Positions 16,349 to 31,505 of a stretch of DNA of 32,000 bases are shown here, one piece after another. Origin of the DNA: Promethearchaeota archaeon. GTDB taxonomy: Archaea; Asgardarchaeota; Hermodarchaeia; Hermodarchaeales; Hermodarchaeaceae. Each line of letters starts with the position of its first letter. Position 1 is the stretch's first letter. The notes under the pieces are model-generated. The model was not told where the DNA came from, made no database searches, and saw only the letters and a list, made by a program, of their open reading frames with translations. The DNA lies in the NCBI GenBank assembly GCA_048938295.1, contig JBHLMI010000008.1, positions 30,001-62,000 on the forward strand. The letters run 5' to 3'. The position numbers and the translations under genes are program-made.

Positions 16349-16738
16349 CTACTTGAGGTCCTCGATGGTTCGTCCAGTCTTTTTGAGATATTCTTCAATG
16401 GCTTTATGTAGACCATCTGCAGCCAAGTTAGAGCAGTGCATTTTGATTGGAGGGAGGCCTTCGAGATTATCTGCGACGTCGCTACGGGTTATCTGGTAGG
16501 CTTCTTTTAGAGTCTTGCCCTTTGTGATTTCAGTCACCATGCTCGAAGTGGCGATGGCGGCTGCACATCCAAAGGTCTTGAAGCTGATATCAGTGATGAT
16601 ATCATCTTTAACTTTGATGTAAATCCAGATGAGGTCTCCACACGTTGGGTTCCCAACTTTTCCTATTGCATCGGCATCTTCCATTTCTCCCATATTTCGT
16701 GGATGGGTGAAATGTTCCATTACTTTTTCACTGTACAT
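16349..16738 (-). CDS. iscU: Fe-S scaffold IscU/NifU
   Basis: GNPTCGD, FGCAAAIA, LPPIKMHCS. Confidence 0.97.
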   Translation of the reverse strand: MYSEKVMEHFTHPRNMGEMEDADAIGKVGNPTCGDLIWIYIKVKDDIITDISFKTFGCAAAIATSSMVTEITKGKTLKEAYQITRSDVADNLEGLPPIKMHCSNLAADGLHKAIEEYLKKTGRTIEDLK

Positions 16739-16764
16739 TTTTGGTTCATCTCCTTTTCTGGTGC

Positions 16765-17976
16765 TTAATGGTGATGTTCATGCTCTTCGTCTTCGAAGAG
16801 TTCATAGGGTACATCCTTTGAAAGTGGTGACATTGCCCTTAGTTTTTTGACGATTGGCGGAAGCACTTCGACAAATCGATCGACTTGTACTTGAGTGTTT
16901 TCACGTCCAAGCGTGAGTTGGAGAGCGCCATGGGCTTCAGCTTCGGATACACCCATGCTGATTAAGCAATGAGAGGGTGCAAGTGTCCTAGAGGTACAGG
17001 CGGAGCTGGTAGCAACCAGAAAGCCCTGGAAACTCAGATGCAGAGTTATTGACTCGCCCTCAATATAGCTAAACCGGATGTTAGCGTTATTCGGTAATCG
17101 TTTTGTCGGATGTCCATTTAGATAAGCCTCATCAATTTCGTCGAGTACCCCTTTTATCAAGCTATCGCGTAGCTTTGAGAGGTGCTTAGCATCTTCTGGT
17201 TGCTGCTTTGTTGCAATCTCAGCAGCCTGTCCCATTCCAACAATCCCCGGGACATTTTCTGATCCTGATCGGATTCCATATTCTTGTCCTCCACCGAGGA
17301 TGATGGTTTGAACTGCATTGCCTTTCTTTACGAAAAGAGCACCGACGCCTTTGGGACCATAAAGATCATTTGAAGAAAGCGTCAGTAAGGAAATGTTCTG
17401 TTCAGAGACGTTAATGGGAATTTGACCTGCACTAGCGACAGCATCCACGTGTAGTGGAATATCAGCCGTTGAGGCGATTTTTCCAATTTCAGCTAATGGC
17501 TGGATTGTACCAACTTCATTATTGGCGTGTTGAATTGAAATGAGTATGGTATGGTCAGTTATAGCCTCTTTGAGGGCGGTTGTGTCCACTAACCCATATT
17601 TGTCAACAGGCACCAGGGTCGATTCAAAACCCTGTTTGTTAAGAAACTTCATAGTGTTGATGATGCTAAGGTGCTCAACCTGTGAGATGATGATGTGATT
17701 CCCTTTTCGGCGGTGAAGATAAGCATAGCCTTGCAGTGCTAAATTGTTGGCCTCTGTGGCTCCACTGGTGAAGATAATACGATCCTTCGCATCCGCACCA
17801 ATTAGTTGCGCCACTTGAACCCGGGCATTCTCAACAGCCTTTGCTGATTGTTGCCCTACCATATGCACGGAACCCGGATTTCCATAGTATGTGCGGAAAT
17901 ACGGTTGCATAGCTGCAAGGACTCGTTCATCGACCGGGACTCCAGCACTATGATTGAAGTTGACCTGTTCGACCAT
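16765..17976 (-). CDS. iscS: IscS-family protein with PLP Lys replaced by Asp
   Basis: FTSGATEANN, HANNEVG, SSNDLYGPKG, SSACTS; probable ATG at 17976. Confidence 0.93.
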   Translation of the reverse strand: MVEQVNFNHSAGVPVDERVLAAMQPYFRTYYGNPGSVHMVGQQSAKAVENARVQVAQLIGADAKDRIIFTSGATEANNLALQGYAYLHRRKGNHIIISQVEHLSIINTMKFLNKQGFESTLVPVDKYGLVDTTALKEAITDHTILISIQHANNEVGTIQPLAEIGKIASTADIPLHVDAVASAGQIPINVSEQNISLLTLSSNDLYGPKGVGALFVKKGNAVQTIILGGGQEYGIRSGSENVPGIVGMGQAAEIATKQQPEDAKHLSKLRDSLIKGVLDEIDEAYLNGHPTKRLPNNANIRFSYIEGESITLHLSFQGFLVATSSACTSRTLAPSHCLISMGVSEAEAHGALQLTLGRENTQVQVDRFVEVLPPIVKKLRAMSPLSKDVPYELFEDEEHEHHH

Positions 17977-18010
17977 ATTACATCTCTCCAAATTACTCGT
18001 TTATTAACCG

Positions 18011-18373
18011 TTAGAAAGTTAGTATTGCATCAGCTTCTAAAGCAAGGTCATTGAGGGTTGCTGATCCAACAACTCCACATTCTTTCACGTAACCACCACG
18101 TTCAATGCCTAACATTTGTGTGCTTTGGTCACAAGCCATGAGCTTGACACCAGCTTCGATAGCCTGGTCGATAACTTCATTTAGCGGAGGGAAGTTCCCC
18201 ATCTTGATTTTTTCAGCTTCCCCTTGCTTCATGACCGTCACGCCTTTTATTAGAAAATAGATAGTGGCATCAATATCCATTGTTCTAGCTGTGGTGGCTA
18301 ATACAAACGGAGCATAAAGCCGATGAGGCTCATCTGTTCCGCTTGTTACTACATACAAGATTTTTTTAGGCAT
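18011..18373 (-). CDS. DsrE/DsrF-like sulfur carrier / peroxiredoxin-like protein
   Basis: YFLIKGV...GVKLMAC pattern; ATG at 18373 after GAGGTG. Confidence 0.85.
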   Translation of the reverse strand: MPKKILYVVTSGTDEPHRLYAPFVLATTARTMDIDATIYFLIKGVTVMKQGEAEKIKMGNFPPLNEVIDQAIEAGVKLMACDQSTQMLGIERGGYVKECGVVGSATLNDLALEADAILTF

Positions 18374-18378
18374 TTTTT

Positions 18379-18648
18379 TCACCTCTCAGTCTTTTGAACC
18401 AGGAACCGGAGATAGTCATCACAATGTTCGATTTTTAAAATCGTGTTACCTGTGCGTTTTGCCCATCTTGAGATGTCTTCTTCTGAGGCAGGATCGTCAG
18501 CTAACACTTCAACAACTTCATCGAGTTTTGCCTCTAGCACTGCCTGCCTGGTCTTATACACAGGAATTGGACAATACAAACCCCGTGCGTCAACCGTATG
18601 GTGGATTTCGACCTTGTCGCTTGTTGATTTCTTTGATTCGTCCAACAT
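18379..18648 (-). CDS. tusA: TusA/SirA sulfur carrier
   Basis: DARGLYCPIP (CPxP), LADDP...DI..WA. Confidence 0.92.
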   Translation of the reverse strand: MLDESKKSTSDKVEIHHTVDARGLYCPIPVYKTRQAVLEAKLDEVVEVLADDPASEEDISRWAKRTGNTILKIEHCDDYLRFLVQKTER

Positions 18649-18674
18649 TCCAATATGCCTCCGGAATCACTAAG

Positions 18675-18706
18675 CTTAACAGTGTTAAGTTCAACCCGTA
18701 TATAAG
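18675..18706 (-). promoter_or_regulatory. TATA box and palindromic operator of the tusA-dsrE-iscS-iscU operon
   Basis: CTTATATA on minus strand at 18706-18699; inverted repeat CTTAAC-AGT-GTTAAG at 18675-18689. Confidence 0.55.
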
Positions 18707-18817
18707 CTTGCTCCAATCACGAATACCCTATCAAAGTGCAACAATGTAACGCATAAAGAGGGTGAGGCGTAACGCTAAAATGCCATGTTTTACTCACCAT
18801 GAGAATAGGGAAAGCCC

Positions 18818-19219
18818 ATGACCTCCTCATCTAAAAACAAAACGAGGCGAAGAGCTCCTGCAGCCTCAGTCTCAACAGATGACCTGGATATGACACCTGC
18901 GTTGAAACAGGAAGTAATGGAAGAACTAAAACAGCTCTTTATGAAAGGCGATCTCCCTGAAGCGAAACGTCGTGACAATATTGTGATGACCCGACTGTGG
19001 GATTCAGATTTGAGAATCGTCGATGCATTAATTGCACTAGAGATTTTCAAGAGCCGAAGTGAAGCTGTGGCGTTTCTAACTCATGAGGGTATCCAAGCTA
19101 AAAGCGAACTAGTAGACACAATTCTCCCAGCCATTGAGCAAATTGAGGAGATTAAACGGCAGACCCGTAAACAAGCTGTATCTGCTCTGCATAAGTCCAA
19201 ACAGCAGAAAGAGATCTGA
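18818..19219 (+). CDS. Ribbon-helix-helix (CopG/MetJ-like) domain protein
   Basis: IVMTRLWDSDLRIVDALIALEIFKSRSEAVAFLTHEGI strand-helix-helix pattern. Confidence 0.7.
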   Translation: MTSSSKNKTRRRAPAASVSTDDLDMTPALKQEVMEELKQLFMKGDLPEAKRRDNIVMTRLWDSDLRIVDALIALEIFKSRSEAVAFLTHEGIQAKSELVDTILPAIEQIEEIKRQTRKQAVSALHKSKQQKEI

Positions 19220-30104: not shown

Positions 30105-31505
30105 ATGAAAAAATATGATGCTATTGTAATTGGCTCTGGATCTGGTGGAATCATCCTCGATCAAGCTTACCGGGCAGGATTCAAAGTTGCTTATGTTGAT
30201 AGAGGACCTCTCGGTGGAACCTGTCTAAACGTTGGATGTATCCCGTCAAAAATGCTCATTTACCCCGCGGATCGAATCGTCGAAATCCAAGAGGCACACA
30301 AACTGGGAATCGATGCGGAGATTAAAAATATCGACTTCAAGGCAATCATGAAACGGATGCGGGAACCAATTGACGAAAGCCTTTCTCACATGCGGGCAGG
30401 CCTCCAACATGCCCAGAACCTTGACTTCTATGAAGCAGAAGGCCAATTTACTGGTAACTACACCATAGAGGTTGCTGGTGATGAAATTCGGGGAGAGAAG
30501 ATCTTCATTGTCGCTGGTGCACGCCCCTCCATTCCCCCCATCAAAGGTTTAGACCAAATCAACTATCTTACGAACGAGACACTTCTCGAGCTCACTGAAT
30601 TACCAAAGAGCGTTATCATTATTGGTGGAGGATATATCGCGGCAGAATACAGCCATTTTTTAGCAGCCATGGGCTCCGAGATTACTATACTGCAACGTGC
30701 ACCCAGATTGGTTCCCCAAAACGAACCCGAAATATCCCTCACATTGCAGAAAGCCCTCTCGAAGAGAATGCGCATCATCACAAATACTGCTGCCATTGAA
30801 GTGAAACATACAGCCTCGGGTGACACTGTTATTGCTGAAAACAAAACAACCGGAGAAGAGATGGAATTCACCAGCGAACGTATCCTTGTTGCAACAGGAC
30901 GACGATCCAATGCTGATGTATTGAAAGTTGAAAAGACAGGAGTCAAAACCGACGAACGCGGATTCATTGTGGTCAACGATTACCTCGAAACGAGTAAAAA
31001 GAACATCTGGGCCCTTGGAGATGTCACAGGACGTTACATGTTTAAACATGTCGCCAACCGTGAAGCCCAAATTGCTTGGAACAACGCTGTAGGCGATCAG
31101 AAACAGAAAATGGAATACCACGCTGTTCCCTACGCCGTGTTTTCCTACCCTCAAATTGCTGGCGTAGGACTCACTGCTGCTGAAGCAGCTAAGAAATATG
31201 ACATCCTTCTGGGAACAGCCAAATATTCAGATGTCGCTAAGGGTGAAGCTATGGTCGAAGAAGAAGGATTCGCTAAAGCCATCGTCGATAAAAACACCTA
31301 CAAAATCCACGGATTCCACATCATCGGTCCCTATGCAGCGATGCTTATTCAGGAGGTGGTTGACATCATGGCCATTGGCGGTAACATGTGGACTCTCGCC
31401 CAAGGCATGCATATTCATCCCGCACTGACCGAGTTGGTCGTATCTGCACTTGGGAACCTATATGATCCCACACATATCCATCATCATGAACACGAGCAGC
31501 ATTAG
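30105..31505 (+). CDS. Dihydrolipoamide dehydrogenase-like class I pyridine nucleotide-disulfide oxidoreductase
   Basis: GSGSGG, GGTCLNVGCIPSK, GGGYIAAE, GDVTG, HPALTE. Confidence 0.92.
   Translation: MKKYDAIVIGSGSGGIILDQAYRAGFKVAYVDRGPLGGTCLNVGCIPSKMLIYPADRIVEIQEAHKLGIDAEIKNIDFKAIMKRMREPIDESLSHMRAGLQHAQNLDFYEAEGQFTGNYTIEVAGDEIRGEKIFIVAGARPSIPPIKGLDQINYLTNETLLELTELPKSVIIIGGGYIAAEYSHFLAAMGSEITILQRAPRLVPQNEPEISLTLQKALSKRMRIITNTAAIEVKHTASGDTVIAENKTTGEEMEFTSERILVATGRRSNADVLKVEKTGVKTDERGFIVVNDYLETSKKNIWALGDVTGRYMFKHVANREAQIAWNNAVGDQKQKMEYHAVPYAVFSYPQIAGVGLTAAEAAKKYDILLGTAKYSDVAKGEAMVEEEGFAKAIVDKNTYKIHGFHIIGPYAAMLIQEVVDIMAIGGNMWTLAQGMHIHPALTELVVSALGNLYDPTHIHHHEHEQH

Follow-up and report, generated by a model that had tools for sequence, protein, structure and literature searches.

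The IscS protein of Archaeoglobus fulgidus (AfIscS) carries an aspartate, Asp199, has pyridoxamine 5′-phosphate (PMP) bound and is inactive as a desulfurase; one ligand of the [2Fe-2S] cluster on its partner IscU is believed to be a cysteine of AfIscS (PMC8918507; PMC7585200). Reviews treat it as an open question how clusters are assembled by the crystallised A. fulgidus IscS-IscU pair when it is no active desulfurase, and sulfide has been proposed as the source (PMC8918507). IscS1 of Methanosarcina acetivorans is reported to be likewise without the catalytic lysine (PMC7585200). Here we analyse an operon in which an IscS of this lysine-less type and an IscU are encoded together with the sulfur carriers TusA and DsrE. 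The operon lies in a 32,000 nt stretch of DNA, referred to below as the window, from a Promethearchaeota archaeon of the class Hermodarchaeia (assembly GCA_048938295.1, contig JBHLMI010000008.1, positions 30,001 to 62,000 of the forward strand).

The operon occupies window positions 16349-18648 and consists of four co-directional open reading frames (ORFs) on the minus strand, tusA, dsrE, iscS and iscU, with a spacing of 5 to 34 nt. The lysine whose position is marked below is the one that forms a Schiff base with the cofactor pyridoxal 5′-phosphate (PLP):

18379..18648, minus strand: tusA, sulfur-carrier protein of 89 aa (Pfam PF01206, 81.9 bits)
18011..18382, minus strand: dsrE, DsrE3-like single-domain sulfur transferase of 120-123 aa (Pfam PF02635, 69.2 bits)
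16765..17976, minus strand: iscS, A. fulgidus-type lysine-less IscS of 403 aa from the ATG at 17976 (PF00266, Aminotran_5, 238.3 bits)
17367-17365, minus strand: GAT codon of Asp204 in IscS, at the position of the PLP Schiff-base lysine; equivalent to E. coli K206 and A. fulgidus D199
16998-16996, minus strand: TGT codon of the loop cysteine Cys327 in IscS (TSSACTS); equivalent to E. coli C328 and to the cluster-ligand cysteine of AfIscS
16349..16738, minus strand: iscU, U-type scaffold of 129 aa (Pfam PF01592, NifU_N, 160.7 bits)

Linkage of tusA and dsrE to lysine-less IscS

Four samples of IscS genes had their flanks searched with profiles of TusA, DsrE and IscU. The first comprised Asgard genomes (loci L052-L081) plus 12 Asgard loci from a genome scan; the second, bacterial IscS loci from the same scan, which are unrelated lysine-bearing (K-type) genes and served only as controls; the third, 80 metagenome loci drawn by two peptide patterns distant from the lysine site; and the fourth, 41 Calditrichota genomes. 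A locus entered the linkage count if its flanks measured at least 900 bp on either side, and a match was accepted only when it lay on the same strand within 1.5 kb. Co-occurrence of the carriers with lysine-less IscS had been put forward in the original prediction as a check, and the outcome was strongly positive: tusA and/or dsrE lay beside 41 of 46 lysine-less IscS genes, as against 0 of 80 lysine-bearing ones. By clade, linkage was found at 37/42 loci of the N[D/E] clade and at 4/4 loci of a second, mixed lysine-less clade (NQ, SM, QT, HL). The metagenome sample alone gave the same picture, with carriers beside 12 of 14 lysine-less and 0 of 34 lysine-bearing genes. Insensitive detection of TusA as the cause of the K-type zero was ruled out, as the profile used recovers the E. 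coli protein at E 7e-22.

Five Asgard genomes contain both IscS types and thus allow paralogs to be compared. The Asp paralog is accompanied in these genomes by tusA (with or without dsrE) and by iscU, whereas the eight K-type paralogs have no carriers on the same strand. One of the eight (L179, G134:C1:3077831-3078979) is exceptional in having tusA and dsrE near by in divergent orientation, on the opposite strand. A second exception is L192 (G400:C246), a distant K-type class-V enzyme (33% identity) of a Caldithrix genome, which has tusA 124 bp off on the same strand. Among the Calditrichota K-type loci carrier linkage occurs in 1 of about 33, a weak exception.

The order of the genes varies. 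Hermodarchaeia and several other Asgard families have tusA-dsrE-iscS-iscU. At two Bathyarchaeia-like metagenome places (three loci) the order is tusA-iscS-iscU, with a lysine-less IscS, plus a small ORF. This small ORF follows iscU, overlaps its end by 4 nt, encodes 49-56 aa and matches no Pfam family (L083:6556-6705, L082:6548-6718). Two Calditrichota genomes have an IscS with Gln-Thr in place of His-Lys, followed by iscU-dsrE-tusA in one genome and by iscU-tusA in the other. An Asgard IscS paralog with His-Leu for His-Lys (L168, G067:C1:1236304-1237485) also has iscU, with tusA 397 bp away on the same strand.

As a genomic pattern, this linkage supports a working link of the carriers with the IscS-IscU pair. 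In a full-text literature search we found no published report linking TusA or DsrE to lysine-less IscS, although an earlier mention is possible. What the operon adds is the gene linkage to sulfur carriers; the lysine-less type itself was already known, since A. fulgidus IscS2, which has the same Asp, is published as an inactive desulfurase.

Residues of the lysine-less IscS and its partner proteins

The exchange of Lys for Asp with retention of the loop cysteine, read from the sequence in the original prediction, was borne out. Asp204 stands in the PLP-lysine column within the motif LSSNDLYGPKG, and Cys327 is kept in TSSACTS. A PDB sequence search gave A. fulgidus IscS2 (4EB5/4EB7/4HVK) as the closest solved relative (E 2.8e-136, residues 12-391). 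The HMMER alignment sets SSNDLYGPKG over SSNDIYGPKG of 4EB5 column by column, and at the same place 4R5F, the D199K mutant, reads SSNKIYGPKG. These matches, together with PMC8918507 and PMC7585200, also confirmed the account of the A. fulgidus protein in the original prediction, namely the same Asp, the lack of desulfurase activity and the use of the cysteine as an Fe-S (iron-sulfur) ligand. The window protein scores under all NCBIfam equivalog cut-offs, those of IscS and NifS included.

Of the 120 database homologs nearest to the protein (identity 58-100%), a pattern search found SSND or SSSD in 102, the other 18 being unmatched by the pattern and unaligned; the 120 homologs come from Hermod-, Hod-, Thor- and Promethearchaeota and from Bathyarchaeota. 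Among 150 representatives of IscS clusters formed at 50% identity, 133 have the lysine. The other 17, with D, A, S, G, T, Q, P, M, R or L in its place, all retain the loop cysteine, and the same cysteine (E. coli C328) is present in 62/62 lysine-less sequences.

The 54 members of the N[D/E] clade in the tree all have an acidic residue at the lysine column (Asp in 53, Glu in 1). Further positions of the active site are changed in the same sequences: the column of E. coli H205 is Asn in 54/54, that of Q183 is Ala in 53/54, and that of R354 is Gln, Leu, Val or Glu, with Arg in none. Retained are T76, H104, D180, S203 and C328 (E. coli numbering). R354 holds the carboxylate of the substrate, Q183 and D180 form hydrogen bonds with the cofactor, and H104 stacks on it (PMC9978102). 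In the window protein the canonical IscS (EC 2.8.1.7) residues K206, Q183 and R354 are Asp, Ala and Gln, which places it outside the canonical definition.

Judged by these columns, the loss of desulfurase chemistry extends past the lysine, and the apparatus for cysteine binding and catalysis is gone. As K206, H205, Q183 and R354 are replaced and the ring binders and the cysteine are kept, a pocket for a pyridoxal-type ring and a mobile cysteine appear to remain under selection. The pattern lends indirect support to a protein without cysteine desulfurase activity that would bind PMP instead of PLP-Lys.

A sequencing error or a pseudogene was ruled out, as the reading frame is uninterrupted and the clade as a whole keeps the Asp together with the entire motif. 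It could also be argued that the lysine-less IscS is a decaying, useless pseudo-enzyme and the gene order an inherited synteny without function. The loss of four catalytic residues would fit such a decay, and so would the local synteny, which is class-wide and takes in unrelated neighbours. Neutral decay is, on the other hand, difficult to reconcile with Asp204 and the cofactor-ring binders being unvarying down to 45% identity, or with a linkage that outlasts changes of gene order and crosses domains; moreover, in this lineage without SufB/D there is no IscU outside the operon. We regard this explanation as very improbable.

The C-terminus of the protein (window 16765-16800) forms a His/Glu-rich tail, ELFEDEEHEHHH, EDEEHEHHH. 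Similar tails (EEHEHHH, GD.DHHH, GDECSHVQ) were seen in Hermod-, Hod- and related Asgard homologs, and the Bathyarchaeia-type proteins end in ...SPLTPKE instead. The tail may be a metal-binding extension, perhaps for iron delivery.

The residues expected of sulfur carriers and of a scaffold were found in the three partner proteins. TusA has its acceptor cysteine in YCPIP, and in a pairwise alignment the aspartates of ADDP and EDIS are equivalent to D45 and D51 of E. coli TusA, which is among its PDB matches (3LVJ_C). It lies under the NCBIfam TusA and YedF equivalog cut-offs and is thus a member of the family rather than an established ortholog of E. coli TusA. The CPxP cysteine is retained in 62 of 64 TusA proteins. 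The conserved active-site cysteine of DsrE, C84, lies in LMACDQS and is retained in all 45 linked DsrE proteins. The closest solved relative of DsrE is S. solfataricus SSO1125 (3MC3, E 3.3e-17, with the cysteine aligned), a protein classed as DsrE3A (PMC11094781). Against the NCBIfam DsrE2 model DsrE scored 36.9 (cut-off 210), and the best PDB match makes subgroup DsrE3A a possible placement. IscU has the ligand set C33, D35, C58, H101 and C102, exceeds the cut-off of NCBIfam TIGR03419 (199 bits) and also matches the NCBIfam model SUF_scaf_2.

In several Asgard lineages other than Hermodarchaeia the IscU beside the lysine-less IscS is part of a longer open frame, about 260-290 aa in L075, L078, L080 and L081 and about 498 aa in L077. 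The length of these frames suggests IscU fusion proteins.

The E. coli residues at the IscS-TusA interface (W45, E49, D52, R220, R237) were tried as a test of the binding mode. They proved uninformative, as they vary even among K-type IscS proteins.

Proposed sulfur supply to the IscS-IscU pair

The metagenome-assembled genome (MAG) that contains the window is 91.6% complete, and its TusA, DsrE and IscU are each encoded exactly once, in every case by the operon. The SufB/D core domain (SUFBD_core) was absent from this genome and from 18 of 19 Hermodarchaeia genomes; the single match in the class sits in a 74%-complete MAG of 470 contigs. The same search gave matches in 14/14 control genomes, methanogens with SmsB included. 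The A-type carrier (PF01521) had no match in this genome. With one IscU, one TusA, one DsrE and no SufB/D, the operon is probably the only recognisable Fe-S scaffold system of this genome and of Hermodarchaeia, and its apparent uniqueness argues that the catalytically dead IscS-IscU pair works in vivo. For Hermodarchaeia without SufB/D the operon would be essential. The genome also encodes a P-loop protein of the Mrp/ApbC/NBP35 type (G000 C2:84016-84753; PF10609, 330 bits), which is likely the cluster carrier downstream of IscU.

The analysis thus shows the gene content, the residue patterns, a linkage that is specific and conserved over deep divergence, and the absence of SufB/D. To account for them we propose that the operon encodes a compact unit of Fe-S cluster assembly, in which IscU would be the scaffold. 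The lysine-less IscS would be the dimeric partner of IscU; it would not act on cysteine, and a mobile loop would hold out its Cys327, as seen in the (IscS-IscU)2 structure from A. fulgidus. DsrE, which is of DsrE3 type and usually present, would pick up sulfane sulfur and hand it to TusA as a cysteine persulfide; in vitro, DsrE3 proteins give sulfur to TusA and the transfer does not run back (PMC11094781). TusA would then dock on the IscS dimer and deliver the sulfur to the loop Cys327 or straight to IscU. A distance of about 4 Å separates the IscS and TusA cysteines in the complex solved for E. coli (PMC2854127). IscU would build the cluster with Cys327 as a ligand, as in 4EB5. DsrE itself might be loaded with polysulfide or thiosulfate from sulfidic sediment, or by a cysteine desulfurase. 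Since the lysine-less IscS would be unable to make persulfide, any flow would have to run opposite to that in E. coli or bypass IscS. On balance we lean, by a modest measure, towards a DsrE/TusA persulfide relay that feeds the IscS-IscU pair.

Several points weigh against such a relay. Neither carrier is found near about 10% of the adequately flanked lysine-less loci (L074, L077, L079, L117 and L140), and many loci are without dsrE; the carriers are thus not obligatory in cis. In the tree, lysine-less proteins make up 62 of the 65 leaves under their common ancestor, a node of weak support (0.355) under which both clades without the lysine come together with three K-type IscS proteins of Asgard archaea that are atypical. 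The shared node implies that the lysine was lost perhaps once or twice, so that the raw counts of linked loci overstate independence; the linkage argument rests on the comparison of paralogs and on the fact that the linkage has outlasted very deep divergence as well as rearrangement. Among the residues of E. coli IscS that contact TusA only R55 is conserved everywhere. The operon encodes no reductase or ferredoxin, and the conversion of persulfide sulfur (S0) into cluster sulfide requires two electrons. What is shown are gene and residue patterns; every transfer step, contact between the proteins, the way in which the sulfur runs, its reductant, its ultimate source and the loading of DsrE are inferred. 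Finally, a SufS-family desulfurase with both SGHK and HHCC motifs is kept in 16 of the 19 Hermodarchaeia genomes.

In the genome studied here this type II enzyme, with intact SGHK lysine and HHCC cysteine, is encoded on a separate contig (G000 C23:31839-33110; L001:1453-2727), where the gene of a MoeB/ThiF/UbaA-like E1 enzyme adjoins it (L001:2730-3482). The sulfur of the clusters could then come from cysteine: the SufS-family protein would make the persulfide and TusA/DsrE would carry it to IscS-IscU, or SufS would load the SufU-like IscU directly. With SufS as the persulfide source the system would not be cysteine-independent. Besides the presence of the intact enzyme in most of the class, two findings would agree with this: no SufE, SufU or SufBCD partner of the SufS-family protein was found in this genome, and IscU and SufU are homologous, as the SUF_scaf_2 match indicates. 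The position of the gene on another contig beside an E1 enzyme points, however, to thiocarboxylate chemistry (molybdopterin or tRNA thiolation) and not to Fe-S assembly, and the SufS-family protein probably supplies sulfur to such thiocarboxylate pathways. Supply by SufS also leaves unexplained why tusA and dsrE track only lysine-less IscS, even where K-type IscS-IscU pairs coexist. We consider this source of sulfur unlikely. The presence of the enzyme nevertheless bears on the original prediction, in which the carriers would bring sulfur from a putative inorganic source by a cysteine-independent route: the connection between the carriers and IscS-IscU is supported by the linkage, but cysteine independence is weakened, because this genome, like most of the class, keeps a lysine-intact SufS-family desulfurase.

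Free sulfide could, alternatively, be the direct source for the IscS-IscU pair. TusA and DsrE would then buffer or detoxify sulfane sulfur, or the flow would be reversed and they would draw sulfur off to thiolated cofactors. Sulfide was proposed for AfIscS-IscU by Pagnier et al. 2015, as related in PMC8918507, and the scaffolds of the SMS (SUF-like minimal system) take sulfide directly (PMC13066941). A reversed flow has its precedent in E. coli, where sulfur goes from IscS to TusA (PMC2854127), and the lysine-less loci that are without both carriers would also be in keeping with a direct use of sulfide. This alternative meets three difficulties. The lysine-less IscS would be unable to generate a persulfide that it could pass on; the carriers are specific to lysine-less IscS and absent at K-type loci, whereas a generic outflow from IscS to TusA predicts the opposite; and the transfer from DsrE3 to TusA is one-way in vitro. 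Taken together, free sulfide with a side role or reversed role of the carriers seems to us distinctly unlikely.

The DsrE/TusA relay can be put in a wider form, for Hermodarchaeia and possibly for a good many anaerobic archaea, in which it would be free of any desulfurase, draw on environmental or metabolic sulfane sulfur, act as the sole Fe-S machine and pass clusters to the Mrp/NBP35-type carrier. We offer this form tentatively and think it less probable than not. If true, it would answer the sulfur-source question of the A. fulgidus-type systems and add a new sulfur-entry route outside the five described Fe-S systems. Already the linkage to the two carriers makes that question one for an experiment with four defined proteins, and the operon suggests where inactive IscS-IscU pairs obtain their sulfur. 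It would also offer an uncluttered example from nature of Fe-S biogenesis centred on a dead desulfurase, and this in the archaea nearest to eukaryotes. The eukaryotic ISC (iron-sulfur cluster) and CIA (cytosolic iron-sulfur protein assembly) machineries use IscU- and NBP35-type proteins.

Surroundings of the operon and comparison with known systems

The frame of iscS is open upstream as far as a TTG at 17991, and its ATG is at 17976. Between the TGA of tusA and the ATG of dsrE (18373) there are 5 nt; with an alternative GTG start (18382) the two genes would overlap by 4 nt. The ATG is the likely start, with a GAGGTGA motif 7 nt before it. The gap from dsrE to the iscS ATG is 34 nt and that from iscS to iscU is 26 nt. 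A convergent receiver gene ends 11 nt from the end of iscU. No terminator-like site was predicted on the coding strand of the four genes, and from their spacing a single transcript is likely.

Two features lie upstream of tusA:

18649..18817, no strand: divergent intergenic region, candidate promoter and operator
18818..19219, plus strand: gene for a 133-aa protein, divergent from the operon (by synteny and alignment)

A TATA-like TTATATA is present at 18699-18705 in minus-strand reading. Between it and the start codon, 27-41 nt upstream of the tusA ATG, lies a perfect 7-1-7 palindrome, CTTAACA-G-TGTTAAG (18675-18689). A pattern search located the palindrome at 6 of 9 Hermodarchaeia loci, each time upstream of tusA, and CTTAACA-N-TGTTAAG is a candidate operator for some regulator.

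The divergent 133-aa gene adjoins the operon in all nine Hermodarchaeia loci with enough flank (61-95% identity). Its product matches no Pfam family; it has a basic N-terminus and a core ...IVMTRLWDSDLRIVDAL...SRSEAVAFL... that by eye resembles a ribbon-helix-helix. Assignment as a ribbon-helix-helix regulator was left unsupported by the Pfam search and by a poor AlphaFold model (predicted local distance difference test, pLDDT, 58.5). The gene may code for a regulator, and its membership in the system is uncertain: acyl-CoA dehydrogenase and receiver neighbours are equally syntenic, so that synteny alone cannot tie it to the operon.

At 11 kb from the operon, window positions 30105-31505 (plus strand) encode a class-I pyridine-nucleotide-disulfide oxidoreductase (Pyr_redox_2 plus dimerisation domain). 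The family takes in persulfide, polysulfide and CoA-disulfide reductases, and a role as source or sink of sulfane sulfur is possible for this candidate.

Among described systems SMS (SmsCB) resembles the operon in being an archaeal Fe-S route without a dedicated cysteine desulfurase (PMC13066941). Its scaffold proteins are, however, unrelated, and SufB/D is what Hermodarchaeia are missing (18/19 genomes). [quoted passage not shown] Those relays feed dissimilatory sulfur oxidation (sHdr), whereas here a scaffold pair for Fe-S clusters stands downstream, and the host is an Asgard archaeon that lives anaerobically. With the E. coli IscS-TusA complex (3LVJ) the system shares an IscS-family dimer and a TusA that has the CPxP cysteine and both aspartates; in the E. 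coli structure the loop cysteine of IscS and the TusA cysteine can meet. In E. coli, by contrast, IscS takes the sulfur from cysteine by way of Lys206-PLP and hands it to TusA, and the two genes do not lie together.

The minimal iron-sulfur (MIS) system, MisS/MisU, has the same kind of two-component core, IscS- and IscU-like, in an operon without chaperones or ferredoxin, and the lack of an A-type carrier in the genome studied here adds to the likeness. MIS is the least studied of the Fe-S systems and its sulfur source is unclear (PMC13066941). The reviews and papers that we found describe MIS without sulfur-carrier partners, whereas the operon in the window contains tusA and dsrE. The closest likeness is to A. 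fulgidus IscS2-IscU: the same IscS subfamily, the same Lys-to-Asp exchange in SSND.YGPKG, the loop cysteine, and an adjacent IscU with Cys/Asp/His ligands. What sets the Hermodarchaeia system apart from it is the union with tusA and dsrE in one operon, the apparent standing of that operon as the sole Fe-S scaffold system, and the His/Glu-rich tail of its IscS.

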